Positions 14,692-48,982 of a stretch of DNA of 64,000 nt are shown here, in pieces. Under the pieces are notes generated by a model. It was not told the DNA's origin, did not search any database, and saw nothing but the letters and a program-made list of their open reading frames with translations. The DNA is from Candidatus Falkowbacteria bacterium. GTDB lineage: Bacteria; Patescibacteriota; Patescibacteriia; Patescibacteriales; UBA12465. The DNA lies in NCBI GenBank assembly GCA_016432645.1, contig CP066698.1, positions 837,062 to 901,061 of the forward strand, given 5' to 3'. Positions within the stretch are counted from its first letter, which is position 1; each line of letters begins with the position of its first letter. The position numbers and the translations under genes were made by a program.

Positions 14692-14728
14692 GCGGGACTT
14701 AAATATCATTAAAGATAAAAATAACAAT

Positions 14729-15649: not shown

Positions 15650-15669
15650 ATATTACCAGTGATTTTTAA

Positions 15670-15698
15670 AAGAGGCTTGATTTTCAAGCCTCTTTTTT
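15670..15698 (+). terminator. Rho-independent terminator after secF
   Basis: Perfect 10-bp stem AAGAGGCTTG (15670-15679) / CAAGCCTCTT (15685-15694) with loop ATTTT and a T-run to 15698. An extended -10 box, TGcTATAAT (15701-15709), follows. Confidence 0.8.
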
Positions 15699-15715
15699 AT
15701 TGCTATAATAAAACT

Positions 15716-35537: not shown

Positions 35538-36446
35538 ATGTTATCTTTATTTCGCATTATAAAATTTAGTTTTCAGGATATCGCCCGCAACGTTTGGCTC
35601 TCTATCGCTACCATTACCATTTTATTGCTCGCGCTTTTTTCTATTAATACTTTAATGACCGTGCGGGTCATTAGCGATAGCGCTTCGCAAGCAGTTCAAG
35701 AAAAGATTGATATTAGTCTATACATCAAGCCAGAAACCCCGGAAGCGGATATTATGTCTCTGAAAAGTAAAATAGAGTCATCCCCCCGTGTTAAAAATAT
35801 TGTTTATATTTCTAAAGAAAGCGCGCTTGCCAATTTTCGCGATAAATATAAAAATAACCAAGAAGTTTTAGCGGCTTTGAAGGAATTGGGGCGCAACCCG
35901 TTATCGCCCAGCCTAACAATTGTTCCTAGTAATTTTGCCGAGTCAAACCTGTTAATTAATGAGTTAAAAATGCTGGATAGCCAGATTATTGAATCTCGAG
36001 ATTTTGCTGATAATGCTATTATCTTAAATAAGATTAACAGCATCACCGACCGAGTGAATGAAGTAGGCTTATTTATTATTGCTATTTTTATTCTGACAAG
36101 TTTGCTAGTGGTTTATAATACGGTTAGGGTAGCGATTTATACTCATCGCCAAGAAATTGAAATTATGCGCCTGGTGGGAGCTTCCTACTCTTTTATTTAT
36201 CTCCCCTACGTTGTTTCCGCTTTTGTTTATACGCTCCTGAGCATCATGATAATAATCGCTATTTTTTATCCGTTTTTAACATTATTACAGCCGTATCTGG
36301 AAGTATTTTTCATGGGCTACAATGTCAATATCTTGTCATATTTCATCAATAATTTTTGGCAGGTTTTTGGCCTACAATTTTTAGTAATTTTAGCCATTAA
36401 TATTTTTGCCAGCCTGTTTGCCGTTCGGCGTTATGCTAAAGTTTAA
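35538..36446 (+). CDS. ftsX: Cell division permease-like protein FtsX
   Basis: An N-terminal TM helix, an extracytoplasmic domain, and a C-terminal 3-TM FtsX domain (EIEIMRLVGASYSFI). Confidence 0.85.
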   Translation: MLSLFRIIKFSFQDIARNVWLSIATITILLLALFSINTLMTVRVISDSASQAVQEKIDISLYIKPETPEADIMSLKSKIESSPRVKNIVYISKESALANFRDKYKNNQEVLAALKELGRNPLSPSLTIVPSNFAESNLLINELKMLDSQIIESRDFADNAIILNKINSITDRVNEVGLFIIAIFILTSLLVVYNTVRVAIYTHRQEIEIMRLVGASYSFIYLPYVVSAFVYTLLSIMIIIAIFYPFLTLLQPYLEVFFMGYNVNILSYFINNFWQVFGLQFLVILAINIFASLFAVRRYAKV

Positions 36447-36495
36447 GGGTTAATTAGTTTAAAGTTAGAGATATTTGACTTTTTGTTTAATTATT

Positions 36496-36520
36496 AATAT
36501 CCTTATCAAGAGGATATTTT
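36496..36520 (+). terminator. Candidate terminator after ftsX
   Basis: Stem AATATCCT (36496-36503), loop TATCAAG, stem AGGATATT (36511-36518), short T-run. Confidence 0.45.
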
Positions 36521-36543
36521 GATTTACAATTTATATTCCAAAT

Positions 36544-36614
36544 TCGGGGATCGTCTAATGGTAGGACTCCAGGTTTTGGTCCTGGCTATCGAGGTTCGAA
36601 TCCTTGTCCCCGAG
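36544..36614 (+). tRNA. tRNA-Gln (anticodon UUG), CCA not encoded
   Basis: Acceptor TCGGGGA/TCCCCGA, with the U1-A72 pair and G73 discriminator typical of bacterial tRNA-Gln. D arm GTCT-AATGGTA-GGAC, anticodon stem CCAGG/CCTGG with loop TTTTGGT, T arm CGAGG-TTCGAAT-CCTTG. Confidence 0.9.
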
Positions 36615-36656
36615 CAATACAAAAAAGAACAGATTAATCTGTTCTTTTTTGTATTG
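36615..36656. terminator. Perfect 42-nt palindrome / terminator directly after tRNA-Gln
   Basis: CAATACAAAAAAGAACAGATT (36615-36635) is the exact reverse complement of AATCTGTTCTTTTTTGTATTG (36636-36656). The arms contain A- and T-runs. Confidence 0.75.
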
Positions 36657-36670
36657 TTTGCGAAGCAAAG

Positions 36671-36824
36671 AGGGATTTGAACAGGTTGGAAGCGAGACGC
36701 GAGTTGAGGCGGAAGCCGAGACGAGCGGACGAGCGTCGAACGAAGCTCCGGGGGAGCTTCGGGTGCCAACCCAGGACAAGTGAGCCTCGCCCATTCCGGG
36801 GCGAGGCGAGGGCGATAAATCCCT
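36671..36824 (+). ncRNA. Candidate structured GC-rich RNA element (unclassified)
   Basis: Closing helix AGGGATTT (36671-36678) / AAATCCCT (36817-36824). Internal helices are GACGC (36696-36700) / GCGTC (36733-36737), which encloses GGC-GGAA-GCC (36708-36717); CGAAGCTCC (36741-36749) / GGAGCTTCG (36753-36761); and GCCTCGCC (36784-36791) / GGCGAGGC (36800-36807). One line spot-counts at about 67% GC. Strand and function are not established. Confidence 0.3.
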
Positions 36825-36880
36825 GTCCCCGAGCAAATAGACAAGAATACCACTTTCGTGGTATTTTTGTTATATAAATA
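36807..36880 (+). repeat. Repeat copy B: tRNA-Gln 3'-end-like core + hairpin + TATAAAT box
   Basis: CGAGGGCGATAAATCCCTGTCCCCGAGCAAATAGACAAGAATACCACTTTCGTGGTATTTTTGTTATATAAATA. The core aligns to the tRNA-Gln T arm and acceptor 3' strand (CGAGGTTCGAATCCTTGTCCCCGAGCAA). The hairpin is AATACCAC (36846-36853) / GTGGTATT (36858-36865). Confidence 0.8.
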
Positions 36881-36894
36881 TAAAGTTTAATTTT

Positions 36895-37176
36895 ATGAAG
36901 AAAAATGTTAAACATATTATAATTTTGGTTTTTTCTGGAATATTTTTATTAATTTCTCTATTTTCTTTAGCTATATCCATCTATCTTTTTACTGATTGTG
37001 GTGGGCATGGCTGTGGTTTGGCAACAATTTTTTCATATTTTACCACCCCCATTTTTATTTTATCTTTAATTCTGAGCTTTCTTACTTTTAATTCAAATAA
37101 ACGTTGGGCGTTAATGTCTTTAATGTTTGGTTTAGTTTTAATAGCCATAGTTATAATTAAACAGTTTTTTTTATAA
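36895..37176 (+). CDS. Small 3-TM membrane protein, function unknown (cassette 1)
   Basis: 93-aa ORF starting 14 nt after repeat B. It has three hydrophobic helices and is AT-rich. Confidence 0.55.
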   Translation: MKKNVKHIIILVFSGIFLLISLFSLAISIYLFTDCGGHGCGLATIFSYFTTPIFILSLILSFLTFNSNKRWALMSLMFGLVLIAIVIIKQFFL

Positions 37177-37183
37177 TAAAACC

Positions 37184-37245
37184 GTTCCAACTATATCCCA
37201 GTCTCCGAGCAAATACTTAAAATAGGCTTCTAAAGCCTATTTTTG
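37184..37245 (+). repeat. Repeat copy C: degenerate tRNA-Gln 3'-end-like core + hairpin terminator
   Basis: GTTCCAACTATATCCCAGTCTCCGAGCAAATAC followed by the hairpin ATAGGCTT (37222-37229) / AAGCCTAT (37233-37240) and a T-run. Confidence 0.7.
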
Positions 37246-37311
37246 TTTTAAAATTAGTTAAAATTTACGACGGGTGTCGTGTCGCTAACTTAAATGTGAT
37301 CCCATTTACTA

Positions 37312-37340
37312 TTGACTTATTTTGATAATTATGTTAATAT
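37312..37340 (+). promoter_or_regulatory. Candidate promoter for the 37483 ORF
   Basis: -35 TTGACT (37312-37317), 17-nt spacer, -10 TAATAT (37335-37340). This would leave a leader of about 140 nt. Confidence 0.45.
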
Positions 37341-37482
37341 ATGGGCATAAGGTTTTTCTACTTCCTTAATTAGTAGATATGGGGTGAATGGATAAACTCC
37401 CTGAATGCCATACGGAAACCGAAAGGTAGCTGAAAAGCAAAATAATCTCGGCATCGCACGTTGCGGTAAAATTCTTTAAAAA

Positions 37483-37956
37483 ATGAACAAGTTCTCAAAT
37501 CCTACAAGAGTAGCTGAAGCTGCTTTGGCAATTATTTTTGCGCCAAAAACTAATCCAGACAAAAAATCAGACTGGAAATGGAGGCATGAATTAATAATCC
37601 ACAAAGCGGAAGCAAATTTAATGGAGTATTATGACTCCCAAACAGTTGTTAGCTATGAATTATATGGAATATCAGTAGGGGTAAAAAAACTCGAACCAAA
37701 AAGGTTCAAAGCTTATTCTGGAGTAATTGAATTAATTCAGGAGAATATTTTTGGTGAAAGGAGCGAGTTTCCTATTAATGAAGAGAAAATTAATCAAGAA
37801 AATAAAAACAAAATTGAAAAATTTTCTCACTTAATTAAAGTAGTGGAATTCGCCTCCAACGAATCAAGCCCCTTTTTCCGTGACTCAAGAAGAGTTGAAA
37901 CATTTCGCCTGAGTCCTGCTCAAAGGGAAAAGATTGTGTTTTGGGAAAAATGGTAA
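37483..37956 (+). CDS. Hypothetical soluble protein (cassette 2)
   Basis: 157-aa ORF with no recognisable motif. It has its own promoter-like site and terminator. Confidence 0.6.
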   Translation: MNKFSNPTRVAEAALAIIFAPKTNPDKKSDWKWRHELIIHKAEANLMEYYDSQTVVSYELYGISVGVKKLEPKRFKAYSGVIELIQENIFGERSEFPINEEKINQENKNKIEKFSHLIKVVEFASNESSPFFRDSRRVETFRLSPAQREKIVFWEKW

Positions 37957-37969
37957 TCAAAAGCTCGTT

Positions 37970-38010
37970 AAAGAAAGCTACACAGCATACTTTAGCGAGC
38001 TTTCTTTTTT
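37970..38010 (+). terminator. Rho-independent terminator
   Basis: Stem AAAGAAAGCT (37970-37979) / AGCTTTCTTT (37998-38007) followed by a T-run. Confidence 0.6.
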
Positions 38011-38033
38011 ATAGCTTAAATCTTAACCGCACT

Positions 38034-38107
38034 GGTTCAAACGTCATCTATGTTTCCAAGCAAATAGACAAAATACCGCTTTCCGTGGTAATTTTGTTAT
38101 ATAAATA
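38034..38107 (+). repeat. Repeat copy D: degenerate tRNA-Gln 3'-end-like core + hairpin + TATAAAT box
   Basis: GGTTCAAACGTCATCTATGTTTCCAAGCAAATAGACAAAATACCGCTTTCCGTGGTAATTTTGTTATATAAATA. It retains a T-loop-like GGTTCAAA and is nearly identical to copy B from CAAATAGACAA onward. Confidence 0.75.
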
Positions 38108-38118
38108 ATTTTAAAAAT

Positions 38119-38565
38119 ATGTCTATTGAAGAAAGGTTCAGGCCTTATGCCGCCGCTTATTTAGTTCTAATTAAAAACGATGAAGTTTTACTATTAAAAC
38201 GTTATAACACCGGGTATCAGGATGGTAACTATAGTTTAGTATCAGGGCATTTTGATGGCGGGGAAACGGCCGGACAGTGTATAGCGAGAGAGGCGCGGGA
38301 AGAAGCAAATATAATAATAACCCCTGAAGATTCAGAGGTGGTTCATGTGCTTCACAGATTTAGACCAGACCGCGAATATTTTGACGTTTATTTAAAAGTA
38401 AAGAAGTGGGCCGGAGAAATTACAAACCTGGAACCAAATAAATGCAGTGAATTAAAATGGTTTAAATTAAATGCCCTTCCTGAAAATATGGCTCCTGAAG
38501 TGAAACAGGCTCTGAATAAAATTAATGGTAATATATTTTTTAGTGAACTTGGTTGGGATGATTGA
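38119..38565 (+). CDS. Nudix hydrolase (cassette 3)
   Basis: Nudix box GHFDGGETAGQCIAREAREEANI (GX5EX7REUXEEXGU pattern). It starts 11 nt after repeat D. Confidence 0.85.
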   Translation: MSIEERFRPYAAAYLVLIKNDEVLLLKRYNTGYQDGNYSLVSGHFDGGETAGQCIAREAREEANIIITPEDSEVVHVLHRFRPDREYFDVYLKVKKWAGEITNLEPNKCSELKWFKLNALPENMAPEVKQALNKINGNIFFSELGWDD

Positions 38566-38585
38566 TTGTCCGTCATATTTAAACC

Positions 38586-38656
38586 TTTTCAGCCATATCC
38601 CTGTCTTCAATTAACGCAAAAAATAGGCTAATTTAGGCCTATTTTTTGTTATATTA
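38586..38656 (+). repeat. Repeat copy E: degenerate tRNA-Gln 3'-end-like core + hairpin
   Basis: TTTTCAGCCATATCCCTGTCTTCAATTAACGCAAAAAATAGGCTAATTTAGGCCTATTTTTTGTTATATTA. The hairpin is of the same AATAGGC...GCCTATT type as in copy C. Confidence 0.65.
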
Positions 38657-38685
38657 TTGACAAAATTATAATATTATGATATAAT
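38657..38685 (+). promoter_or_regulatory. Near-consensus sigma-70 promoter abutting repeat E
   Basis: -35 TTGACA (38657-38662), 17-nt spacer, and an extended -10 TGaTATAAT (38677-38685). Confidence 0.6.
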
Positions 38686-38716
38686 TTATTTATTAAAATG
38701 AACCTTCAAAAAATAT

Positions 38717-38926
38717 ATGGTTATGAAAAAGAAAATGTTATTCTGGCGAATTATGCTATGGGTTGATATTGTTGTAATGTTTTTCGGTCTAGTTTTTTCA
38801 GCGGTTTTGATGTTTGTAAAACATTTAAAAACTTTTTCTTTCCCGCTTTGGTTAGTCGCAGTAATATCAGTGCTTGGTATTATAACCGCTATTATAGCCA
38901 TTGATCGGACTGATCGGGAAATATAA
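38717..38926 (+). CDS. Small 2-TM membrane protein, function unknown (cassette 4)
   Basis: 69-aa ORF with two hydrophobic helices. It is flanked by a consensus promoter and a strong terminator. Confidence 0.5.
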   Translation: MVMKKKMLFWRIMLWVDIVVMFFGLVFSAVLMFVKHLKTFSFPLWLVAVISVLGIITAIIAIDRTDREI

Positions 38927-38946
38927 ATTTCCCAAACCTCTTTTAG

Positions 38947-38977
38947 CCAGTAGTTCTTTTTGAATTACTGGTTTTTT
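38947..38977 (+). terminator. Rho-independent terminator
   Basis: 10-bp stem CCAGTAGTTC (38947-38956) / GAATTACTGG (38962-38971) containing one G-U pair, loop TTTTT, T6 run. Confidence 0.8.
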
Positions 38978-39010
38978 ATTTATAAAATTATTTTAATATA
39001 TTATAAATCT

Positions 39011-39061
39011 CAGGTACATAGACAAAAATGTCATTTTCGTGGTATTTTTATTATATAAATA
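39011..39061 (+). repeat. Repeat copy F: hairpin + TATAAAT part of the repeat, with the tRNA-like core nearly erased
   Basis: CAGGTACATAGACAAAAATGTCATTTTCGTGGTATTTTTATTATATAAATA aligns with copies B and D from ATAGACAA onward. Confidence 0.6.
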
Positions 39062-39069
39062 GTAAAAAT

Positions 39070-39858
39070 ATGAATAATAAAAACATTATAATTAAAGCGA
39101 TGGTTGCTGTTTCTTATGTGGCTATGGTGGCGGTTAACTGGCTCGCCAACGCTTTGCCGATTAATAACCGTTCTACCGGGGCTATTTCCGATGCTTACCC
39201 TAATTTATTTGCCCCCGCAGGCTTAACTTTTTCCATTTGGGGTTTAATTTATCTACTCCTGGCCAGCTATTGTTTGTATCAATTTGGCCTTTTCCAAAAC
39301 GATAGAGGCCGGGGGAAAGCGGCTCTTTTTCAGAAAATCGGCCTCTATTTTATCTTAAGTTCGCTGGCTAACATTGCTTGGATTTTTTCCTGGCACTATG
39401 ATTTTATCGGGATATCAGTTGTACTGATGGCAGTGATTCTGTTTTCTTTAATCAAAATTGCCGATATTTTAAATAAAGAAAAGCTATTGTTAAAAGAAAA
39501 GTTTTTTATACGCGTTCCGTTTAGTGTTTATTTCGGTTGGATTACTGTGGCCGCCATCGCGAACATCACCGTATTTTTAGTAAGCATTAATTGGAATGGA
39601 TTTGGAATTTCTGACCAAGTTTGGACCATAATAGTTTTATTGGCCGGGCTATTAATCGTTATTCTAAGAATGATTAAGGATAAAAATGTTGCCTATGGCT
39701 TAGTTTTGGTTTGGGCTTACGCCGGCATTTTATTAAAACACTTATCAGCCGATGGCTTTTCCGGCCGCTACCAAGGAGTAATTATTACTACGGTTCTGTG
39801 TATTTTGGGATTTTTAATTAGCTTGGCAACTCTTATTAGCAAGAAAGCAAAATCATAA
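39070..39858 (+). CDS. Polytopic membrane protein, TspO/MBR-related (tentative)
   Basis: Multiple Trp-rich TM helices (ISDAYPNLFAPAGLTFSIWGLIYLLLA, NIAWIFSWHY, SVYFGWITVAAIANI). The start is moved to ATG 39070 because the track's ATG at 39028 lies inside repeat F. Confidence 0.45.
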   Translation: MNNKNIIIKAMVAVSYVAMVAVNWLANALPINNRSTGAISDAYPNLFAPAGLTFSIWGLIYLLLASYCLYQFGLFQNDRGRGKAALFQKIGLYFILSSLANIAWIFSWHYDFIGISVVLMAVILFSLIKIADILNKEKLLLKEKFFIRVPFSVYFGWITVAAIANITVFLVSINWNGFGISDQVWTIIVLLAGLLIVILRMIKDKNVAYGLVLVWAYAGILLKHLSADGFSGRYQGVIITTVLCILGFLISLATLISKKAKS

Positions 39859-39862
39859 AGAT

Positions 39863-40348
39863 ATGGATAGTTTTTATAATTTTACTGCCGAAAATGCGAA
39901 TGGCCAGGTGATTAAAATGTCCGATTACCGCGGTAAAGTGGTTTTAGTTGTTAATACGGCGAGCAAATGCGGTTTTACGAAGCAGTATGCCGGTCTGGAA
40001 AAGCTTTATCAAGATTATAAAAATAAAGATTTTGTTATTTTAGCCTTTCCTTGTAATCAGTTTGCCGGTCAAGAACCGGGGAGCGAGGCGGAGATTGTAT
40101 CTTTTTGCCAATTGAATTATGGTATTAGCTTCCCAATCTTTAAAAAAGTCAAAGTTAACGGCCAGGAGACACACCCTCTTTTTGTTTATTTAAAAAAGGA
40201 GCTCCCGGAAATTTTAGGCGGACGCATCAAGTGGAATTTTACCAAGTTTTTAATTGATAGCGCCGGTAGTCCCCTAAAGCGTTTTTCGCCAGCCACCACG
40301 CCGGAGGAAATCGAGAAGTATTTGCTTGCTAACAAAATTTTACAATAA
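39863..40348 (+). CDS. gpx: Glutathione peroxidase family protein (Cys type)
   Basis: Full-length match to family motifs: VVNTASKCGFTKQY, LAFPCNQFAGQEPG, KWNFTKFLI. Confidence 0.9.
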   Translation: MDSFYNFTAENANGQVIKMSDYRGKVVLVVNTASKCGFTKQYAGLEKLYQDYKNKDFVILAFPCNQFAGQEPGSEAEIVSFCQLNYGISFPIFKKVKVNGQETHPLFVYLKKELPEILGGRIKWNFTKFLIDSAGSPLKRFSPATTPEEIEKYLLANKILQ

Positions 40349-40370
40349 GCTTAATAATCAAAATAAATTT

Positions 40371-40778
40371 ATGACAGTGCTTAATTCTTTGAAGTTATAT
40401 CTAATAGCCGTCCCCATTTTTTTCATTATTGATTTAACCTGGCTTGGGGTAGTCGCTAAAGAGATATATCAAAAGCATATGGGGCACTTAATGAGACCAG
40501 CGCCAAATTGGCCAGTAGCAGTGCTATTTTATCTGCTCTTTATTATTGGTCTGCTTATCTTTGTTGTTTCGCCAGCCATGAAAAATAATTCCTGGTCATA
40601 TGCCCTTTTGTATGGTGCCTTGTTTGGTTTTTTTACCTATATGACTTTCGACTTAACAAGTTTAGCCGTTTTAAAAGATTGGCCCTGGAAAATAGTAGCC
40701 ATTGATATTATTTGGGGAATTGTTTTATCTTCATCGGTCTCTGTTGCCACTTATTTTATTGCTAAAAATATAATTTAA
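40371..40778 (+). CDS. DUF2177 family membrane protein
   Basis: Four TM helices with the characteristic FIIDLTWLGVVAK...Y and TYMTFDLTSLAVLKDWPW segments. The start is placed at ATG 40371. Confidence 0.75.
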   Translation: MTVLNSLKLYLIAVPIFFIIDLTWLGVVAKEIYQKHMGHLMRPAPNWPVAVLFYLLFIIGLLIFVVSPAMKNNSWSYALLYGALFGFFTYMTFDLTSLAVLKDWPWKIVAIDIIWGIVLSSSVSVATYFIAKNII

Positions 40779-40783
40779 TAAAT

Positions 40784-41548
40784 ATGAATCTCTTTTGGCT
40801 ACAAGTTATTACCATATTCATTTTTATTAATTTTTGTTTTGTTTTTGCAGTAATTAAAAAAAGAAATGATATTGCTGATGTCGCTTGGGGCTTAGGGTTT
40901 ATTTTAGTGGCTTTGGTTGGTTTATTTTTTAACCCAACAGTCAGAGTTTCCCTGATAACCTTAATGGTTATTTTTTGGGGAAGTCGTTTAGCATATCATA
41001 TTGGACGCCGATTTTTAAAAAGTAGCGAAGAAGATAAGCGCTATCAGAAAATGCGTTCTGGTTGGAAAGGTTCAGTGATATTTAATTCTTGGTTAAGAGT
41101 TTTTCTAATTCAGGGAGCCACCTTATTATTAGTAGCCGCGAGCATTATTATAGTGACCAATTTTGATAAGGGTGGGTTTATTTGGATTAATGTTATCGGG
41201 GTTGCCATCTGGTTGCTTGGTTTAAGTTTTGAAATTATTGGTGATCAGCAACTTAAAAAATTTCTTAATCAACCAGAAAATAAGGGCAGAATCATGACTA
41301 GCGGTTTATGGAAGTATACCCGTCATCCTAATTATTTTGGCGAAGCTGTGTTATGGTGGGGACTGTGGTTGGTGATTTGGGATGTGGATTATTTTTATCT
41401 TGGTTTAATTGGCCCAATTACTATAACTTTATTACTGCGTTTTGTTTCGGGGGTTCCTCTGGCTGAAGAGAGGTATAAAGAAAATATTGAATTTCAGGAA
41501 TATGCCGCCAAAACACCACCGATGTTACCGAACTTTTTTATTAAATAA
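40784..41548 (+). CDS. DUF1295 / steroid 5-alpha-reductase-like membrane protein
   Basis: Polytopic protein with the GLWKYTRHPNYFGEAVLWWG signature. Confidence 0.8.
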   Translation: MNLFWLQVITIFIFINFCFVFAVIKKRNDIADVAWGLGFILVALVGLFFNPTVRVSLITLMVIFWGSRLAYHIGRRFLKSSEEDKRYQKMRSGWKGSVIFNSWLRVFLIQGATLLLVAASIIIVTNFDKGGFIWINVIGVAIWLLGLSFEIIGDQQLKKFLNQPENKGRIMTSGLWKYTRHPNYFGEAVLWWGLWLVIWDVDYFYLGLIGPITITLLLRFVSGVPLAEERYKENIEFQEYAAKTPPMLPNFFIK

Positions 41549-41556
41549 TTTTTTAT

Positions 41557-42804
41557 ATGAAAAAGAAACTCGCCATTATTGGTTCCGGTATTTCCGCCAT
41601 GACTTGTGCACATTATTTGCGGGATGATTATGAAATTTCCATTTTTGATAGAAACGATTATTTAGGCGGACATACTCATACGCATGAGTTTGAAGATAAT
41701 GGCCATAAATTTACTATTGATACCGGTTTTATTGTTTTTAATCTTCATACTTATAACAATTTACTAAAGTTATTTGCCGAATTATGCGTGGAAAGACAAA
41801 AAAGCAGCATGTCATTCGCTGTTTATAATCAAAAAACAGGGCTGCAATATTCTGGCAGTAGTTTATTTCATCTTTTTTCTCAGCCCAAAAACTTGCTATC
41901 TCTTCAATATTGGAAATTTTTGTTTGAGATAAATAAGTTTTTTAAGATGGCGCTAGACGAGCGCGAATCTATTCAGGGGAGTGATGAAACTATTAGCCAG
42001 TATTGTAAGCGAAAAAATTTATCCAATTATTTTTTAGATAATTATTTAGCGCCGATGTCTTCGGCTGTTTGGTCAACTCCTCATCAGAGTGCTTATGATT
42101 TGCCAATATCTTTAATAATTCCATTTTTTTATAATCATGGTTTGTTGGGCGTTAATCGCCAGTTTCAATGGTATACCGTTAAGGGAGGCTCTAATGATTA
42201 TACTAAAAAGATTGTAGAAAATAGCAATTTTGCCATTCATTTACAAGAAGCCGCCTTGGAAGTTAAAGAGTCAGAAGCGGGAGTACAACTAATCACTGAG
42301 AAAGGCAGTTATAATTTTGATTATGCAATTTTAGCTAGTCATTCCGATGAGAGTTTAAAAATAGCCACTGAGCTTTCTGCTGTGAAAAAACAGTTATTAG
42401 AGAAGTTTAGTTATAGCCGAAATCGGGCTGTTTTACATACGGACATTTCAGTTATGCCTACGATTCGAAATGCCTGGGCCTCTTGGAATCATGTTATTAA
42501 CAAAGAGAGCGGGCAGTCTTCAACGGTTTATTGGATGAATGAGTTGCAGAAGCCAGATACAAAAACAAATTATTTTGTTTCCATCAACCCTTTTCAAGAA
42601 ATAGACAAAAATAAAATTGTAAAAGAGTTGATTTATGACCATCCCTTATTTACAGTTGAAAATTTTGCTTTACAGAAAAGACTTCAGGAATTAAATCAAA
42701 ACACTAAAATATTTTTTGCCGGAGCTTATTTTGGCTACGGTTTTCATGAGGATGGCATTAAGTCTGGTTTGCAAGTGGTTGAGATTTTAAAAAATAATAA
42801 ATAA
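41557..42804 (+). CDS. FAD/NAD-binding amine-oxidase/desaturase-like oxidoreductase
   Basis: N-terminal Rossmann motif KLAIIGSGISAMTCAHYL...IFDRNDYLGGHTHT. It occupies the conserved position ahead of the DUF1365 and CFA-synthase-like genes. Confidence 0.8.
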   Translation: MKKKLAIIGSGISAMTCAHYLRDDYEISIFDRNDYLGGHTHTHEFEDNGHKFTIDTGFIVFNLHTYNNLLKLFAELCVERQKSSMSFAVYNQKTGLQYSGSSLFHLFSQPKNLLSLQYWKFLFEINKFFKMALDERESIQGSDETISQYCKRKNLSNYFLDNYLAPMSSAVWSTPHQSAYDLPISLIIPFFYNHGLLGVNRQFQWYTVKGGSNDYTKKIVENSNFAIHLQEAALEVKESEAGVQLITEKGSYNFDYAILASHSDESLKIATELSAVKKQLLEKFSYSRNRAVLHTDISVMPTIRNAWASWNHVINKESGQSSTVYWMNELQKPDTKTNYFVSINPFQEIDKNKIVKELIYDHPLFTVENFALQKRLQELNQNTKIFFAGAYFGYGFHEDGIKSGLQVVEILKNNK

Positions 42805-42809
42805 AGCAG

Positions 42810-43652
42810 ATGAATTCTTGTATTTATACTTTAAAATTGATCCATGAACGTAAAGCGCCACGACGTAATTTTTTCAAATACGCAATTTACATGGCGTATA
42901 TAGATTTGGACGAGTTGGAGAGTATTTCTAAAAAAATATTTTTATTTGGTTATAATAAATGGAATGCACTTAGTTTTTTTGATAAAGATCATTTTAAGTT
43001 TGTTTTCCAGAAAAGCAAGAATGCGGAAATTATTGCCAGAGAAACTGTCAATTTTGAGGCGGACAAGTATATAAATAAGAATACCAAAGAACGTTTAAAG
43101 GTTTTAATTGAAGAGCTTCAGCTTGGTTTCAAATTAGATAAAGCTTATTTACTGACAAATTTGAGAAATTTCGGTTACATATTTACACCCGTAAGTTTTT
43201 ATTATTGTTTTGATGCGGCTGGTAAGTTTAGGGCGATGTTTAGTGAAGTTAATAATACTTTTGGCGACCAAAAAATGTATTATTGCAAAATCGACAATCC
43301 TGAAGCTGAACTATTTTCTGATACCCAGAAAAAAAATTATTACATTTCACCCTTTATTAACTATGATAACAATCTTCATTGGCAATTTAAAATTCCTGGG
43401 CCAAAGATTATGATGGCAATTGATTCTATTAAAGATGATAACGTAGAATTGCACACCGTGCTTACTGGGAATAGGAGAGAACTGAGTAATTTTAGTTTAG
43501 TATGGGCAATGCTAAGATATCCAATGGTGACTTTAACGGCAATCGCTCTTATCCATTATCAGGCCTTGAAGTTATTTATAAAAAAAATAAAATTTTATCG
43601 TAAAGATGAAGCTGACAATGAAATAATAAAAGCGATTAGCAATAAGAAGTAG
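42810..43652 (+). CDS. DUF1365 family protein
   Basis: The N-terminal signature IYTLKLIHERKAPRRNFFKYAIYMAYIDLDEL matches the Y.G.V.H.R..P..H.F.Y......DLDEL pattern. Confidence 0.8.
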   Translation: MNSCIYTLKLIHERKAPRRNFFKYAIYMAYIDLDELESISKKIFLFGYNKWNALSFFDKDHFKFVFQKSKNAEIIARETVNFEADKYINKNTKERLKVLIEELQLGFKLDKAYLLTNLRNFGYIFTPVSFYYCFDAAGKFRAMFSEVNNTFGDQKMYYCKIDNPEAELFSDTQKKNYYISPFINYDNNLHWQFKIPGPKIMMAIDSIKDDNVELHTVLTGNRRELSNFSLVWAMLRYPMVTLTAIALIHYQALKLFIKKIKFYRKDEADNEIIKAISNKK

Positions 43653-43659
43653 TAAAGAT

Positions 43660-44877
43660 ATGTATAAGGCAATATTTTTAACATTTTTTAAAAATAAAAA
43701 ATTTAGAGGCGCTTTAGAACTGGAGTTTGATAATTGCAAATATGTTTTTGGCGCAAAGCAGGCTGATGATAGTAATCAGGGCGACATTTATTCGGCAAGG
43801 ATTAAGGTAGTTAATATAAATTTTTTTAAGAGAGTGATTTTGTTTGGCGACACCGGCTTCGGAGAGGCTTTTTTATTTGGAGAGTTTACTACTCCTGATT
43901 TAAAGCGAGTTCTTTTATGGTTTGTGCAGAATAAAGAGTCGCTGCCTGGCTTCAGAGATAAAAATATTTTATCTATTTTATCGGTATTTACTAATCTGGG
44001 ATTAAAATTTGAACACTTGCGTAATAAAAATACTAAAACGGGAAGTAAAAATAATATTCGTGCTCATTACGATGTTTCAAATGATTTTTATCGATTGTGG
44101 CTGGATGAAACCATGACTTATTCTTCGGCGATTTTCAATAATTGTACAAGCCTGAAAGAGGGGCAAGAAAATAAATATCGTCGAATTTGTGAACAAATTA
44201 AGCTTAATGAAAGTGACCGAGTTTTAGAAATAGGTTGCGGCTGGGGCGGCTTTGCTGTTTTTGCTGCTAAAAATTACGGTTGCCACTTAACAATCACCAC
44301 TATTTCCGAGGAGCAATTTATTTATGTTGAGACGCTTATTAAGAAAGAAAATTTAGTTGATAAAATAAAACTAATTAAAAGCGATTATCGTGATTTAGAT
44401 GGCAATTTTGATAAGATTGTTTCCATAGAGATGATGGAGGCTCTTGGTTATGAATATGTTCCTCTATTTTTAAGTAAGTGCCAGAAATTAATTAAGCAAG
44501 ATGGCTTGATGTGTTTGCAGTGCATCATTTACCCTGATGAATATTTTCAAAGATATTTGCGCAATCCCAATTTTATTAAGAAATATATTTTTCCCGGGGG
44601 AGAGTTGCTGTCTTTAAAGCAAATTAAAGAAAAAACTTCTAGTTTGAATTTGGAGATTCTCGATATTCATTATATTGGTCAAGATTATGCCAGAACTTTG
44701 CATAAGTGGCGAGAAAATTTTATTGCCAGGGAGAAGGAAATCAAACAATTGGGGCTTGATGAATATTTTTACAGAAAATGGTTGTACTATTTTGTTTATT
44801 GCGAGGTTGGATTTGAGACCGATTATATTAACGACGTTCAAATTTTAATTAAGAAAAATATATGGTTATCGACATAG
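43660..44877 (+). CDS. Cyclopropane-fatty-acyl-phospholipid synthase-like SAM-dependent methyltransferase
   Basis: HYDVSNDFYRLWLDETMTYSSAIF, SAM motif VLEIGCGWGGFA, and IEMMEALG. Confidence 0.88.
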   Translation: MYKAIFLTFFKNKKFRGALELEFDNCKYVFGAKQADDSNQGDIYSARIKVVNINFFKRVILFGDTGFGEAFLFGEFTTPDLKRVLLWFVQNKESLPGFRDKNILSILSVFTNLGLKFEHLRNKNTKTGSKNNIRAHYDVSNDFYRLWLDETMTYSSAIFNNCTSLKEGQENKYRRICEQIKLNESDRVLEIGCGWGGFAVFAAKNYGCHLTITTISEEQFIYVETLIKKENLVDKIKLIKSDYRDLDGNFDKIVSIEMMEALGYEYVPLFLSKCQKLIKQDGLMCLQCIIYPDEYFQRYLRNPNFIKKYIFPGGELLSLKQIKEKTSSLNLEILDIHYIGQDYARTLHKWRENFIAREKEIKQLGLDEYFYRKWLYYFVYCEVGFETDYINDVQILIKKNIWLST

Positions 44878-45023
44878 AATTAACTCTAAATCGCTTTGGT
44901 TTTGGCAAGATTAGCGAGAACAAGTTTCAGTTTTTCTGTTTCCGGCTGTCTAAATGGAAAATCCCGAATAAATATTCTATTTCTTTTGAAATAAATTGGC
45001 GAGGTAAAGAGGAAATTAAATAA
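44862..45023 (+). CDS. Possible small ORF (53 aa) overlapping the end of the CFA-synthase-like gene
   Basis: Not in the track. ATG 44862 to TAA 45021-45023 translates to MVIDIELTLNRFGFGKISENKFQFFCFRLSKWKIPNKYSISFEINWRGKEEIK. It overlaps the upstream gene by 16 nt. No known motif. Confidence 0.3.
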   Translation: MVIDIELTLNRFGFGKISENKFQFFCFRLSKWKIPNKYSISFEINWRGKEEIK

Positions 45024-45043
45024 TAAACTTATTTTTTAACTAT

Positions 45044-45442
45044 ATGCCAAAAATAATTATCGCCTCCGGTCCAGTTATTGTTGAAAATAATAAAGTTTTA
45101 TTAAATAAGCATGGAGATGATAATTTCTGGAAATTTTGCGGCGGCCGGGTTGAGGAAGGCGAAACTAATTTATTGGAAGCTGCTCAGCGGGAAGCCAAAG
45201 AAGAAATGGGAATTGAGATTGAAATATTGGATGATAAGCCATATATTTTGCATTTTGAAAAAGAAGTTGAAGAAAAACAGACTAGCGTTGTTTTGGCCCA
45301 TTTTTTAGCCAAAAGAATTGGCGAGTTGGTTCCTGGAGACGATATCAGAGAATGGCAGTGGCTGGATATAAATGATTTGGATAAAGAAAATCTCGCCCCT
45401 AATATCAAGCCGGTTTTAAAGTATTTTAGATTTTTGAAATAA
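45044..45442 (+). CDS. Nudix hydrolase
   Basis: Nudix box GGRVEEGETNLLEAAQREAKEEMGIE. Confidence 0.85.
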   Translation: MPKIIIASGPVIVENNKVLLNKHGDDNFWKFCGGRVEEGETNLLEAAQREAKEEMGIEIEILDDKPYILHFEKEVEEKQTSVVLAHFLAKRIGELVPGDDIREWQWLDINDLDKENLAPNIKPVLKYFRFLK

Positions 45443-45453
45443 AGTCACTTAAT

Positions 45454-46524
45454 ATGAATAAAATATCAGATATTTCTCAAATAAAATCCGAAAAATGGAT
45501 TAAAAATTGGTCGGGAAATTGGCGCACAGCCTTTACGACTTTATATTATGCCTATACTGATGGACTTAAACTTTATATCGGAAAAAATTTAGCTACTAAT
45601 TTATTGGTTTGTGAAAAAAAAGTTAGCTCAAACTATATAGCTAAAAAAGCATTAAATAATTATTGTAAATATATTGCTGGCCTGGTTATTAAAGATAATA
45701 AGTTAGCGACAAAATGGGCAAAAGACACTATCTCTACAGCTGAGGATTTGTTTAAGATAATGACGAAACTAAAAAATAAAAAAGATTTTACTTTGGCTAA
45801 TCTCTTAGAGCTTAAGACTAATTTTTATTTACATATCCCCCCGCATTTCTCAATGAAAAAAGTAGTTGATTACTTGCCGGAAAAATTACAGAGAAAACTA
45901 ACCCCGGGGCTTATCGCTGCTAGATTAAAAACTGAAAATTTATTTAATGCGGTAGATTTGGCTCTAAGAAAATATACAAAACTCATTGCTCAAAAAACTG
46001 GATATTCATTAGACTTGGTAGATTTTTTAACAATAGACGAGGTTGAGCTGTATTTAAAGAATAACAAATTACCATCCAAGAAAGAGCTTGTTAGTCGCTC
46101 AAAAGGTTTAGCGTTTTTTTGTGAAGGGAAAAGCGTGGGGATATTGACCGGTTCTTCTTATAAAGATTTACAGAAACATCTTGTAAGCTTCACGGGAAAT
46201 GAATTAAAGGGGGCCATCGCTTATAAGGGCATAGTTAAAGGAGTAGCCAGGATTGTACTTGATCCCTTTAAGGTAAAAAGATTTGATAAGGGGGATGTTT
46301 TAATTACGGGAATGACTAGACCAGAATTTTTATCTTTAATGAAAAAAGCATCTGCTTTCGTAACCGATGCCGGTGGTTTATTATCACACGCCGCGATTGT
46401 CGCCAGAGAGTTGAAGAAGCCATGTATTTTAGCGACTGAAAATGCTAGTAAAGTTTTGCATGACGGCGACTTGGTAGAAGTGGACGCGAATAAAGGAGTA
46501 GTTAGGATTTTAAAAAGAGCTTAA
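45454..46524 (+). CDS. PEP-utilizing-enzyme mobile (swivelling phosphohistidine) domain protein with no ATP-grasp domain
   Basis: C-terminal segment GDVLITGMTRPEFLSLMKKASAFVTDAGGLLSHAAIVARELKKPCI...DGDLVEVDANKGVVRIL. The N-terminal ~230 aa are helical and unassigned. Confidence 0.75.
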   Translation: MNKISDISQIKSEKWIKNWSGNWRTAFTTLYYAYTDGLKLYIGKNLATNLLVCEKKVSSNYIAKKALNNYCKYIAGLVIKDNKLATKWAKDTISTAEDLFKIMTKLKNKKDFTLANLLELKTNFYLHIPPHFSMKKVVDYLPEKLQRKLTPGLIAARLKTENLFNAVDLALRKYTKLIAQKTGYSLDLVDFLTIDEVELYLKNNKLPSKKELVSRSKGLAFFCEGKSVGILTGSSYKDLQKHLVSFTGNELKGAIAYKGIVKGVARIVLDPFKVKRFDKGDVLITGMTRPEFLSLMKKASAFVTDAGGLLSHAAIVARELKKPCILATENASKVLHDGDLVEVDANKGVVRILKRA

Positions 46525-46531
46525 CATAATT

Positions 46532-46918
46532 ATGTATATGCCAACTTCACATAAAAATTATAAACACGTCTTATTTTTTATAATCGGTGTGATTGCGACT
46601 ATCGCCTATCGTGGAATTGTGGTCTTAAATCATTATGACCCGATTTTAGTTGAGACCGCCTGGTATATCGGAACTTTGGGCTTTGCTTGGTATTTCTGGC
46701 ATCGTTTTCAGATAGAAAATCGCCGCAATAAATTAATCACCAAGCTTAATCTGTTAGAAAAAACTCAACAGGGCCAAGTTCTAAATCAAGAAGACAAAGA
46801 AGCTTTAAGCGGAGTGCTAAAAAGTTTAAATGCCAGTTTGGCAAAATGGAATTATATTATAATCTTTGTCAGTTCTTTTTTGGCGGTTGCTTACGCCATT
46901 TACTTTGATTTGAAATAA
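46532..46918 (+). CDS. Small membrane protein, function unknown
   Basis: 128 aa with two N-terminal TM helices, a polar coiled segment, and a C-terminal TM helix. Confidence 0.5.
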   Translation: MYMPTSHKNYKHVLFFIIGVIATIAYRGIVVLNHYDPILVETAWYIGTLGFAWYFWHRFQIENRRNKLITKLNLLEKTQQGQVLNQEDKEALSGVLKSLNASLAKWNYIIIFVSSFLAVAYAIYFDLK

Positions 46919-46925
46919 AAAATAT

Positions 46926-48800
46926 ATGCGCTTTGGCGAAAGCTTCCCTCAAGGAGCTGATCCTAAAAACCGAATGGATGTGCTGAAACTTAATAAAGAG
47001 CAGGAGGATATTCCTAGCTATATTAGGTTTGGTTTGGAAATTAGAAATAATTTAAAGTCAAAAATTGAAAAAGATGGTTGGCCTGATTTGCCAAATCAGG
47101 AAGATATTAATTTAACGGAAGATATTTTTGAGGCGGCCAAGAGCGAAGTTAATAAAACTTGGGAAAACTCTGTCCAAACTTTGATAAACGAGAAAACTGA
47201 ATCTTGGAAGCAAGATTTATCACCCGATAATCCTGAAAATAAAGCAGTCTTAGATTTATTAAATAACCCTGGAGAACTTAGCAAGAGTTTCTCTTTACGC
47301 CAATTTGGTGTTTTGGAAATATTAAGAACGGCCAACCCCGATGCTTGGCGTACGTTAGTTGTCGCTTCCTCAGAAAGACAACTGGCATCTATTGCGGTAA
47401 TGGAACATTGGTTAAAAAATGGGAACCCGGAAAATTTACAAGCAATGTGCAATAAAATTAACCTTAACCCCGCCGAACTTAAATTGTTTGTTGATACGGC
47501 CGCTATTTTAGGTAAATATGTAGACCACGCTTATGTTAAACAAATTGAGCTAGCTGATTCGCCTGGCGGATCGGAAGCCACAAAATTAAAAGACGAGGAT
47601 GGCGCTGCTTATCTTTATGATTTATATAAAGACCCTAGAAGTGAAGATATTTATGTTAAAACTTATAGCGATATTTTTCCATATGAATGGGAAAAAATTC
47701 AATCGCGTTTGGAAATGCTATCCGTTAGGACAAAATTAGCGATTGATAAGGGAGAATTACCAGACAGTTATAATTTATTTGCTAATTATTTAGAAAAGAC
47801 TGGCCAAGTTTATGGCTCAAAAAGCATCCAGCCGGAAGCTTTAGAAAAAGAATGGGACTCTTTATATAAAATGGGCAAAGAAGTTGATAATACCAGTTGT
47901 CCTCTAATGATTATTCCTCAAGGATGTGCTTCGGTGTCCGGAGAGGCGGGTAAGGTAGACGCGGAAATTCGTTTAGGATTAAAAACCAAAGAAACAAAGG
48001 AGCAGGAAAGAGGTTTTAGTAAATTCACCGGTATTGCTCAAGAAATGATTAATGAAAATCGTGATTGCTTGGCCAAAGATTATAAAGTTCCGGATGTTAA
48101 ATTAAACTATCAGCCATGGTCTTTTGGTCCTAATTTGTATTGGATAACTCGCGGCGAATCGGGAGAAGACCAAATTTTATCTCATACTAACGCCGTTAGA
48201 GAAGTAGCAATAACCAATGAGCTTCCTTTACTTAAGAAAATATTTAAAAAAGATATTAGTAATCAAGAGTATTCTCGGGCCGCAGTCACAGAAACAGTTT
48301 TACATGAGGTGAGCCATAATGTTTTGGACTCAGAAGATAAAAAAGTTTCCAAGAGAATCGGCAAAAGTTTTGAAGTCGGGATTTTAGATGAATTAAAGGC
48401 GGAAACGCTTAGCATGAAGATTCTATATGAAGCTCATAATAGAAACGAGTTGCCAAATGGAGTCGATATTAAAACTCAACTTTTGGCAAAACTAGGTGCT
48501 AATTTAGATTATTTGAAGAATAAATCTAATCAGAAGGCGAGTGCCGGTGAGCCTTATTATATTTGTAGCGCGACAATATTCAGCAGCCTAATGGAAAAGG
48601 GGTTGTTGGTTAATAAAGGCTCTGGTTACGAAATAAATAACCCCGAAGCTTGTATTAAGGAGATTGCCAGTCTTAGTGAAAATATTTTGTCATTTTATAC
48701 AAATACGGAAACTAGGCCAGCAGATGTTAAAAATTATATTAATGAATTAAGAAGGAGGAGTCAGTCGCCGATAGTGCAAGAGTTGATAAAAAAGTTATAA
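46926..48800 (+). CDS. Hypothetical protein with a putative HExxH zinc-metallopeptidase motif
   Basis: 624-aa ORF. It has TETVLHEVSHNVL (HExxH) followed 27 residues later by ILDELKAET, a possible third ligand or gluzincin Glu. Confidence 0.55.
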   Translation: MRFGESFPQGADPKNRMDVLKLNKEQEDIPSYIRFGLEIRNNLKSKIEKDGWPDLPNQEDINLTEDIFEAAKSEVNKTWENSVQTLINEKTESWKQDLSPDNPENKAVLDLLNNPGELSKSFSLRQFGVLEILRTANPDAWRTLVVASSERQLASIAVMEHWLKNGNPENLQAMCNKINLNPAELKLFVDTAAILGKYVDHAYVKQIELADSPGGSEATKLKDEDGAAYLYDLYKDPRSEDIYVKTYSDIFPYEWEKIQSRLEMLSVRTKLAIDKGELPDSYNLFANYLEKTGQVYGSKSIQPEALEKEWDSLYKMGKEVDNTSCPLMIIPQGCASVSGEAGKVDAEIRLGLKTKETKEQERGFSKFTGIAQEMINENRDCLAKDYKVPDVKLNYQPWSFGPNLYWITRGESGEDQILSHTNAVREVAITNELPLLKKIFKKDISNQEYSRAAVTETVLHEVSHNVLDSEDKKVSKRIGKSFEVGILDELKAETLSMKILYEAHNRNELPNGVDIKTQLLAKLGANLDYLKNKSNQKASAGEPYYICSATIFSSLMEKGLLVNKGSGYEINNPEACIKEIASLSENILSFYTNTETRPADVKNYINELRRRSQSPIVQELIKKL

Positions 48801-48802
48801 GT

Positions 48803-48973
48803 ATGAGAAAAAAATATTGGAAAATTTTAGGCTCTATTCTTGCTTTGCCGTTAGGCATATTTATTTTTATTTATGGCGGCTACGATGATAGCCCCGGCGC
48901 TCAGTTGTTGGGATTTATAATATTTGGCAGCGGGGTTGTCGGTTTAATAAGAAGTCGAAAGAAGTCAGTATAA
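48803..48973 (+). CDS. Possible small 2-TM membrane protein (56 aa)
   Basis: Not in the track. It translates to MRKKYWKILGSILALPLGIFIFIYGGYDDSPGAQLLGFIIFGSGVVGLIRSRKKSV and starts 3 nt after the upstream stop. Confidence 0.4.
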   Translation: MRKKYWKILGSILALPLGIFIFIYGGYDDSPGAQLLGFIIFGSGVVGLIRSRKKSV

Positions 48974-48982
48974 AAGCCATTT

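Follow-up and report, generated by a model that had tools for sequence, protein, structure and literature searches.

A tRNA-Gln gene of Candidatus Falkowbacteria as a probable integration site for large serine recombinases, followed by a cassette array and a structured GC-rich element

The 3' end of a tRNA-Gln gene in Candidatus Falkowbacteria bacterium is followed by partial copies of itself, by an array of single-gene cassettes and by a structured GC-rich element, here called GCel. The window analysed is a 64,000-nt stretch of contig CP066698.1 (assembly GCA_016432645.1), and it was compared with 190 related loci, which carry L-numbers (L001, L057, L089 and so on). The closest described systems are of several kinds. 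Integron attC sites are imperfect palindromes with the core motifs R''/L''/L'/R' (AAC...GTT). The cis-mobilizable elements (CIMEs) of Streptococcus (ICESt1/3) are integrase-less segments between att sites that accrete in tandem beside the target of an integrative element. Folded single-strand sites include the attP(+) of CTXphi used by XerCD, the bottom strands of integron attC sites and the single-strand origins of plasmids; large serine recombinases (LSRs) act on duplex DNA. The zinc-ribbon-domain motif of serine integrases occupies positions 16-24 in attP and 11-19 in attB, and is thus 5 bp nearer the centre in attB than in attP (PMC3783163). The tycheposons of Prochlorococcus are tRNA-linked flexible islands built by serial integration (bioRxiv 10.1101/2020.12.28.424599).

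The explanation preferred here, at a probability of roughly 0.6, is that the T-arm and acceptor end of tRNA-Gln serve as attB for LSR-driven integrative elements in this clade of Falkowbacteria, with integron-like, self-promoted arrays as the outcome. As in tycheposons and Islander-type islands, an intact tRNA stands at the edge with partial tRNA copies downstream, newer elements would push older ones inward, the cargo is accessory and stress-related, the hosts are streamlined, and remnants and tandem junctions are present. Direct 3' copies of the tRNA and a precise presence/absence polymorphism, both expected of a tRNA island, are found here; the recombinase is absent from the window and present in relatives. 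The locus differs from tycheposons in that the recombinase is an LSR where tycheposons have one of the tyrosine type, the tRNA fragments are conserved mimics of attP that carry 5 inserted nt, the units go down to 0.2-1 kb with a single gene, and a structured GC-rich element lies at the site. The LSR systems of A118/LI, Bxb1 and phiC31 (PMC3783163) resemble the related loci in having a Resolvase, Recombinase and zinc-ribbon recombinase that adjoins the att site, and they resemble this array in that the element's left half-site motif lies 5 bp farther from the centre than that of the host site and in that identity is short and centred on the predicted central dinucleotide. Of these features, the domain architecture and the adjacency are seen in the relatives only, and the 5-bp rule holds for left halves. 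Unlike those systems, the elements here target the 3' ends of genes for several tRNA species, leave many recombinase-less scars, apparently reuse the site and are associated with GCel, and no directionality factor was identified.

LSRs with the Pfam domains Resolvase, Recombinase and Zn_ribbon_recom turned up in relatives of the window when a serine-recombinase scan was extended with phmmer. Their genes adjoin the 3' end of tRNA-Gln, convergently, in L003, L007, L010, L011, L012, L025 and L118, adjoin tRNA-Ser in L105, and adjoin a GCel-linked core in L085 and L093. All LSR matches in genome loci lay downstream of tRNA-Gln, with 0 in the ~10 kb upstream. In L057 a complete 6.2-kb element (11048-17300) is flanked by the tRNA on one side and by a direct copy of its 3' end on the other; it encodes a STAND/AAA ATPase, a rolling-circle-type Rep (REP_ORF2-G2P/RepSA) and an LSR, whose frame continues through a miniature GCel into the tRNA 3'-end copy. 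The first-pass annotation had seen no integrase, which holds for the 64-kb window but not for the relatives, where LSRs adjoin the same tRNA. A tyrosine-recombinase motif scan returned zero matches in ~1.9 Mb of loci plus the window, and a tyrosine or integron integrase is therefore replaced by the LSRs at the site as the candidate recombinase. The LSR frames of L007 (11008-12660, - strand), L010 (6711-8321, - strand) and L012 (11009-12664, - strand) are open through the terminator hairpin and the antisense tRNA-Gln, and the tail of the protein reads ...LGDKDSNLDSQDQNLESYR; these open frames imply that the attachment site overlaps or adjoins the end of the recombinase gene, on its 3' side.

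The sites on which this argument depends are as follows.

36544..36614, + strand: intact tRNA-Gln(UUG) (ARAGORN and Rfam)
36599-36617, + strand: T-loop to 3' end of tRNA-Gln, a putative attB-type left half-site (alignment A5)
36659..36836, + strand: GCel, helices P1-P5, closing with copy B (covariance model R1, 140 bits)
36818-36836, + strand: copy B, the tRNA 3'-end copy that closes GCel
37177..37212, + strand: copy C, a family-iii site (nhmmer E = 3.9e-10)
38034..38064, + strand: copy D, a degenerate family-iv site (alignment A7 with the L089 attP, L001b and L099; p = 0.007)
38586..38612, + strand: copy E, a weak family-iii-like remnant reading CAGCCATATCCCTGTC... (p = 0.09; assigned by eye only)

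Site families iii and iv were found from the sequence preceding internal GCel units and then by motif searches. Family iii has the consensus aaaccGTTCCAAsTATATCCCAnnCyCsGAGCa, with 44 matches at no more than 2 mismatches and 79 by profile model; the consensus of family iv is TTATTAGCCACnC...TTCGAAcTtCGTCC...CGAGC. Sites of both families lie downstream of tRNAs and are co-oriented with them in all but one case, an inverted family-iii site in L057 beside the tRNA terminator (~11085-11125). Each is followed by a terminator hairpin, and many stand directly after a stop codon. The T-loop motif, GTTCGAA or GTTCCAA, is in both families exactly 5 nt farther from the acceptor end than it is in the tRNA. 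Copies C and D belong to these two families, which are present in dozens of related genomes: copy C is the only family-iii site in the window, copy D aligns with family iv, and copy E is weakly like family iii.

The LSR was connected to the tRNA by alignment A5, in which L089 was set against the junctions at the tRNA in L007, L012 and L118. All four agree almost completely on the right-hand side of CGAGCC, where a hairpin and the LSR gene's 3' end make up the P' arm. On the left-hand side a family-iv sequence in L089 takes the place of the tRNA present in the other three, and the sole difference in length is 5 extra nt: GTTCGAA[AGCAG]TCCCTCCAAG-CG-AGCC in L089 against GTTCGAA[-----]TCCTTGTCCC-CG-AGCC. 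The shared right arm and the family-iv left arm indicate that L089 keeps an intact attP and that L007, L012 and L118 are attL. A position-weight-matrix test of the tRNA half-site against family iii, made on left halves, also scored best at an offset of 5 nt (0.51), followed by 4 nt (0.44), with no more than 0.26 elsewhere. If the published motif positions are applied to both sequences, the crossover would fall on the CG dinucleotide within CCGAGC, ~5 nt away from the 3' end of the tRNA. In alignment A6 one trailer stands behind three different left halves, namely tRNA-Gln (L055), the GCel end (L187, L001) and copy C, as expected if an ancestral tRNA-plus-trailer had taken integrations.

The repeats had been described at first as five tRNA 3'-end copies of progressive degeneracy. 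Each was aligned locally to the 3' 28-mer of the tRNA and compared with 8528 null windows, giving p = 6e-4 for B, 8e-4 for C (both within the top 0.1% of null windows), 0.007 for D, 0.09 for E (not significant alone) and 0.98 for F. The tRNA-derived part is therefore real in B, C and D, doubtful in E and absent in F, which has the trailer module alone. Three of the five copies stand, and their similarity to the tRNA exceeds the null controls; E is marginal and F is not a copy. The supposed decay series also has to be abandoned, as C fits a conserved 36-nt family (E = 4e-10), D belongs with a second conserved family, and C, D and probably E appear to carry an element-type serine-recombinase half-site with the fixed 5-nt insertion. 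Within the window, a repeat search recovered two families, one of 62 nt with copies B (at 36819), C (at 37195), D (at 38046) and F (at 39000), and one of 19 nt that joins the tRNA 3' end (36599) to B (95%) and C (79%). The core motif TCCYTGTCCCCGAGCAA is present in three places in the 64 kb, where 0.15 would be expected, and the TTTTKTTATATAAATA box, at 0-1 mismatch, is found only at B, D and F. The earlier view of the repeats as the mark of site-specific integration at a tRNA gene is supported, as is their tie to the locus: the covariance model gives one match in 64 kb, and the related copies occur only downstream of tRNAs.

The genes upstream of the array are stable. The FtsX encoded there has its relatives in Candidatus Falkowbacteria (Patescibacteria), which agrees with the assignment of the genome. 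In ~70 species representatives the order tRNA-Thr/tRNA-Gly, D,D-carboxypeptidase, ftsE, ftsX, tRNA-Gln is conserved, and ftsE and ftsX lie upstream of tRNA-Gln in the window, ftsX immediately so. Among the related loci compared, conservation stops 3' of tRNA-Gln. The closest relative, L001, has an FtsX of 98% identity and different genes between tRNA-Gln and the gene after copy F. It carries a 6-kb block of ABC transporter, MarR, ArsR and thioredoxin-like genes and lacks the 93-aa, 157-aa and Nudix cassettes of the window, of which the last has an 86% identical counterpart in L122. L001 retains the 3' end of the 69-aa cassette gene (12980-13090) and module F (13120-13165). The locus is hence not invariant or syntenic across relatives, and cassette content does vary between strains: it is hypervariable, differing among strains with 98% identical FtsX. 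Exact-protein look-ups for strain variants returned only short contigs of the same sample.

Many assemblies end at this point. About 29 of 80 related contigs (L001-L080, from metagenome-assembled genomes, MAGs) terminate at most 0-400 nt from tRNA-Gln. L188, the sole Logan contig with the window's exact FtsX, likewise ends 0-400 nt from it, and such ends amount to a systematic assembly break.

The variable region seems to be longer than the array. GC content in the window drops from ~0.41 to 0.32-0.37 between 36 and 51 kb, which suggests that a flexible island extends ~15 kb past the cassettes; elsewhere in the window it is 0.40-0.44, against 0.32-0.37 at 36000-51000. Within this part, a cluster of five genes (DUF2177, DUF1295, amine oxidase, DUF1365 and cyclopropane-fatty-acid (CFA) synthase; 40326-44877) is absent from the 98%-related L001, with the junction directly after a glutathione peroxidase stop codon. 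Att-like repeats were sought at the junctions of this indel and none were found. The island also holds two distinct Nudix hydrolase genes (38119-38565 and 45044-45442), and Nudix is the commonest downstream cargo family across GCel loci (10 loci).

Read from the tRNA, the array consists of hp1 with GCel and copy B; module B and the 93-aa gene; copy C; the 157-aa gene; copy D with a B-type module; the Nudix gene; copy E with a hairpin and promoter; the 69-aa gene; and module F, followed by the distal island. Under serial LSR integration, an incoming circle would bring an attP whose left half mimics the tRNA T-arm, with GTTC(G/C)AA 5 bp farther out. Integration would restore the tRNA, and the left half of the element, now joined to the previous tRNA tail and trailer, would stay downstream as an attR-type scar. 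Repeated integrations would displace older inserts away from the tRNA, and later loss of recombinase genes would leave a compact array. Copies C, D and probably E would then be attR-type scars, each bracketing one gene with its own terminator-plus-promoter module; copy C would be a P-type left half of an element joined to the tRNA tail, and copy D the left, P-type half of an LSR-family attP. The unit of hp1, GCel and copy B may be a cargo-less member of the system whose 3' end is a tRNA-like half-site. The recombinase would act in trans, or would have been lost from this strain.

GCel escaped the first-pass annotation. It is ~175 nt long, lies between the tRNA terminator and copy B, and together with hp1 forms a ~220-nt unit that ends in copy B. 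Covariance model R1, run with filters off, finds it once in the 64-kb window, and the hp1-GCel unit is present downstream of tRNA-Gln in many Falkowbacteria. A metagenome scan with one GCel motif found 104 places, and 99 distinct units entered the census. The upstream neighbour of these was tRNA-Gln in 30, tRNA-Ser in 16, tRNA-Asn in 2, tRNA-Val in 1, a family-iii site in 14, a tandem unit in 5, another or degenerate core in 30 and a contig edge in 1. Every unit is co-oriented with its tRNA, and the unit closes with the 3' end of the tRNA that precedes it (at least 14 of 15 nt in 37 of 50). GC content is 59%, against 38% in the host genomes. Presence or absence of hp1 and GCel is precise: L093 and L014 read tRNA followed by CAACAAATTTTTTGTGCTG... 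with no unit, and L127, L169 and L163 read tRNA, hp1-GCel-AATCC...GAGC and then CAACACATTTTTTGTGCTG...; L017 and L001 differ in the same way.

The five-helix structure of GCel is strongly supported by covariation, for which slid pairing partners and 500 shuffles served as controls. In a MAFFT alignment of 46 diverse copies, 88.3% of cells were paired against 29-41% with slid partners, and 282 were double-change cells against 27-63; none of 500 shuffles reached these figures. The model-based alignment of 122 matches gave 91.7% paired against 28-39%, and 632 double-change cells against 35-94. G.U pairs number 150 and A.C pairs 62. The window copy folds at -77.9 kcal/mol (z = -3.67) on the + strand and at -65.8 kcal/mol (z = -2.03) on the - strand. 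In the outermost helix, P1, which covaries with tRNA type, the 5' (N)GGGATT pairs with AATCCC(N), the first bases of the terminal tRNA copy. P1 is ambiguous because its 5' GGGATTCGAAC is the inverse of GTTCGAATCCC, and it could equally represent two inverted recombinase half-sites; helices P2-P5 do require a folded strand. The purine-rich junction strands are long, single-stranded and conserved.

Several identities were considered for GCel. ARAGORN finds no tmRNA, tRNA-like or minus-strand tRNA in it and the acceptor-type pairing does not covary; the hairpin lengths vary out of frame, which rejects a coding sequence. A group I intron is not relevant, as the tRNA introns of Patescibacteria lie in the anticodon loop (PMC13011429). 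Rfam 15 gave no match for the modules, nor for GCel over 36660-36830, even at E up to 10, with only tRNAs passing the gathering threshold, and the viral contigs searched with the GCel and family-iii motifs gave only chance matches inside coding regions. To judge from the sequence, GCel could be an RNA, a folded DNA (for instance the single-strand origin of elements with a Rep) or a platform for proteins. It may be a categorically new component, the rest of the locus being a variant of known systems. Folded single-strand sites resemble GCel in being strand-specific, in a structure kept by compensatory changes and in lying at or within an integration site, and CTX prophages share its tandem arrays; they differ in that a single-stranded DNA substrate is not evidenced here and in that the long single-stranded purine-rich segments of GCel are more typical of RNA.

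Smaller elements were also seen. A miniature GCel of ~60 nt, made of P1 and one hairpin (e.g. GGGATTCGAAGTTTATGCCC...GGGGTAAATCC), replaces the full element in L049 (11060-11160), L098 (~1440-1540, - strand) and L057 (17235-17290). A GC-rich palindrome, CCTGCCTGCCGGCAGGCAGG, is inserted within displaced tRNA-type cores or GCel copies in L124 (~3670-3700, - strand), L162 (~2625-2650), L151 (~4395-4420), L091 (4107-4300), L120, L159 and L186, and seems to be a separate small repeat family.

The cassettes and their regulatory modules comprise the following features.

36615..36656, no strand assigned: hp1, a perfect 21+21-nt palindrome with A-tract and T-tract (inverted repeat I3, 100% complementary)
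36838..36880, + strand: module B, with -35 TAGACA (36838-43), hairpin (36846-36865), -10 TATTTT with TG (36862-67) and TATAAAT (36873-79) (promoter and terminator scan)
36895..37176, + strand: cassette gene 1, a 93-aa predicted membrane protein (open reading frame, ORF, list)
37219..37243, + strand: hairpin C (terminator scan; blastn 84% identity to L055 11046-11108; alignment A6)
37483..37956, + strand: cassette gene 2, a 157-aa protein (ORF list, Pfam scan)
37960-38003, + strand: hairpin behind cassette gene 2 (inverted repeat I13)
38065..38107, + strand: module D, with TAGACA (38065-70), hairpin (38074-38090) and TATAAAT (38100-06) (repeat family, terminator scan)
38119..38565, + strand: cassette gene 3, a Nudix hydrolase of 148 aa (Pfam NUDIX E = 3.6e-18)
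38616-38649, + strand: hairpin E (terminator scan)
38657-38685, + strand: consensus promoter TTGACA-17-TATAAT with TG (12/12 positions match)
38717..38926, + strand: cassette gene 4, a 69-aa membrane protein (ORF list)
38945-38973, + strand: terminator behind cassette gene 4 (terminator scan)
39015..39061, + strand: module F, with TAGACA (39019-24), hairpin, -10 TATTTT (39043-48) and TATAAAT (39054-60) (repeat family, promoter scan)
39070..39858, + strand: membrane protein, first gene of the distal, more syntenic part of the island (80% identical to L001)

Hp1 is a predicted bidirectional terminator and the left end of the ~220-nt unit; an equivalent hairpin starts every related unit. Hairpin C is probably the former tRNA-Gln terminator, as the same trailer stands behind a real tRNA-Gln in L055. 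Terminator-like hairpins number 11 in the region, where 2.3 would be expected. Modules B, D and F are terminators fused with promoters: a TAGACA -35, which reads TTGACA in many related cassettes, stands directly behind the core, and a spacer of 17-18 nt includes the 5' arm of the hairpin, the 3' arm of which holds a TG-preceded TATTTT -10. The same arrangement as in module B was found in L001, L005, L009, L013, L103, L132, L144, L162, L170 and L187. The TATAAAT box, previously taken for promoter-like, lies downstream of this conserved arrangement and is probably not the -10 element, a part for which the arrangement already has TATTTT. The 69-aa ORF is preceded by the sigma-70 promoter at 38657-38685, the region's only 12/12 match.

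Exactly one ORF lies in each interval between copies (93 aa, 157 aa, Nudix of 148 aa and 69 aa), as the first-pass annotation had said. Its figure of 8-14 nt from the box to the ATG was also right; the ATG is 14, 11 and 8 nt downstream of TATATAAATA in B, D and F, respectively. The protein after copy F had been called TspO-like, which lacks Pfam support: no family matched 39070-39858 at E up to 0.01, and the 93-aa protein likewise had no significant match in the Pfam scan. In related arrays, single co-oriented ORFs stand between sites as 0.4-1.1-kb units that often alternate with GCel, as in L139, L162, L103, L108, L144 and L181, and the pattern recurs in more than 20 loci. The downstream cargo covers 133 Pfam families among 148 cluster representatives and includes methyltransferases, APH, HD, Nudix, Fic, heavy-metal ATPases and ArsP. 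When 788 neighbouring ORFs were clustered and the 148 downstream representatives were searched with Pfam, no partner protein was seen to recur.

Integrons, and clusters of attC sites lacking integron integrases (CALINs), resemble this array in their compact, co-oriented, mostly single-gene cassettes between conserved sites, often with no recombinase nearby, and in cassette content that varies between strains. They differ in that no IntI tyrosine recombinase was found here (~1.9 Mb plus window scanned) and the upstream genes are ftsE and ftsX; in that the sites derive from the tRNA T-arm and acceptor, with family iii/iv consensus sequences that are non-palindromic, unlike attC (no dedicated attC model was run); in that each cassette has its own terminator and promoter where the integron uses a common Pc; and in that the primary site is a tRNA gene rather than attI. 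The suggested integron-like array is accordingly right as to co-oriented single ORFs bounded by conserved sites in many genomes; IntI and attC palindromes are absent. CIMEs share integrase-less, att-bounded segments that accumulate in tandem at a target, and they differ in having tyrosine integrases, a length of kilobases and neither a structured element nor a 5-nt half-site rule. One tentative proposal, at well below even odds, is that the locus is a serine-recombinase analogue of integrons in the candidate phyla radiation (CPR), with tRNAs as primary sites, self-promoted cassettes, GCel as a portable tRNA-surrogate site or cofactor, and the recombinase in trans. The literature searched (CPR integrons, tRNA cassette arrays, LSR-tRNA islands) gave no description of tRNA-mimicking LSR attP families, of CPR arrays or of GCel.

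A number of observations weigh against integration by LSRs as set out above. Only family iv is tied to an LSR by direct comparison of attP and attL, and family iii is linked by analogy. Canonical LSRs do not recombine attL and attR without a directionality factor, and integration should destroy attB, which means that one tRNA could be reused only under an additional assumption. Nor does canonical LSR chemistry account for the way in which GCel units are inserted and amplified in tandem. The GCel left half beside copy B has unshifted, attB-like spacing (GAGGCGGAAATCC vs GAGGTTCGAATCC), a misfit with a simple attR, and to our knowledge the ~130-nt structured GCel interior is needed by no known LSR mechanism. 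No LSR homologue was found in the 64-kb window, which leaves current activity in this genome unproven. The statistics for copy E are borderline, and nothing att-like is present in F.

In a rival reading the cassettes are actively excised and re-inserted by a trans-acting LSR, with GCel as a portable landing pad that mimics the tRNA and regenerates attB, permitting open-ended growth. This would account for the recurrent order of tRNA or site, hp1-GCel-core, promoter-ORF and site in many loci, for the 14 GCel units directly after family-iii sites and the 5 in tandem, and for the same hp1-GCel unit standing behind a tRNA in the window and behind a family-iii site in L147. The 3' half-site of GCel is attB-like in spacing and matches the local tRNA, and conservation of the sites across species suggests selection rather than fossil decay. 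The idea is nevertheless somewhat unlikely: no circular junction or excision product was observed, most arrays are without a nearby LSR, an attB mimic needs ~20-25 bp and not a structured element of 175 nt, and the directionality rules of LSRs would have to be relaxed. Still less probable is that GCel is an independent non-coding RNA gene or single-strand replication origin, its tRNA copy and mobility being secondary and the array unrelated. The strong covariation in five helices, the G.U to A.C ratio (150 vs 62), which favours the tRNA-sense strand, the + strand z of -3.67, the GC content of 0.59 in genomes of 0.38 and the conserved purine-rich junction strands all fit this reading, and the rolling-circle-type Rep of L057 points to single-stranded DNA intermediates in the system. 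Yet a strong bidirectional terminator precedes GCel and the promoter scan shows no evident promoter, the element is precisely polymorphic and forms tandem arrays, the LSR gene of L057 has a miniature version within its 3' end, beside the att core, and P1 is equally explicable as two inverted recombinase half-sites.

Explanations that dispense with the recombinase were also weighed. Tandem duplication of the tRNA 3' region, or homologous or illegitimate recombination, followed by neutral decay, could draw on the tRNA as a conserved homology anchor, and some indels of the island, such as the CFA synthase cluster at 40326-44877, have no att-like junctions. It is very improbable in view of C and D, which fall in conserved multi-species families with a fixed 5-nt insertion, of the LSR genes and the attP/attL pair at the same site, and of the co-orientation of sites with the tRNA (one inverted exception, L057). 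There is hardly any room left for a generic intergenic family of repetitive extragenic palindromes (REP) or terminators with a coincidental resemblance to the tRNA, although modules B, D and F are mostly hairpin and T-run and F has no tRNA-like part. Within the 64 kb the motifs are confined to this array, in the 190 related loci they occur only downstream of tRNA genes, and fewer than one null window in a thousand resembles the tRNA as closely as B and C do. The presence of a single GCel and a single family-iii site in the 64 kb, with related copies that are tRNA-linked and co-oriented save in L057, speaks against the generic family that had been named as an alternative at the outset.

The CPR, or Patescibacteria, have tiny genomes, and gene exchange among them is little understood. 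This locus points to LSRs that target tRNA 3' ends and to compact, self-promoted arrays of single-gene cassettes that break metagenomic assemblies; LSR targeting together with such arrays would explain strain-level variation in gene content. In Patescibacteria MAGs, the covariance model and the site motifs can serve to mark the limits of islands and to account for broken contigs. The attP-type tRNA mimics with their 5-bp shift form a natural series on the discrimination of attP from attB, which is relevant to integrase engineering. GCel, with ~100 distinct copies, strong covariation and no Rfam family, is a candidate structured RNA or DNA of a new type, connected with site-specific recombination. 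If the tentative serine integron analogue is real, GCel would let arrays grow and shuffle.

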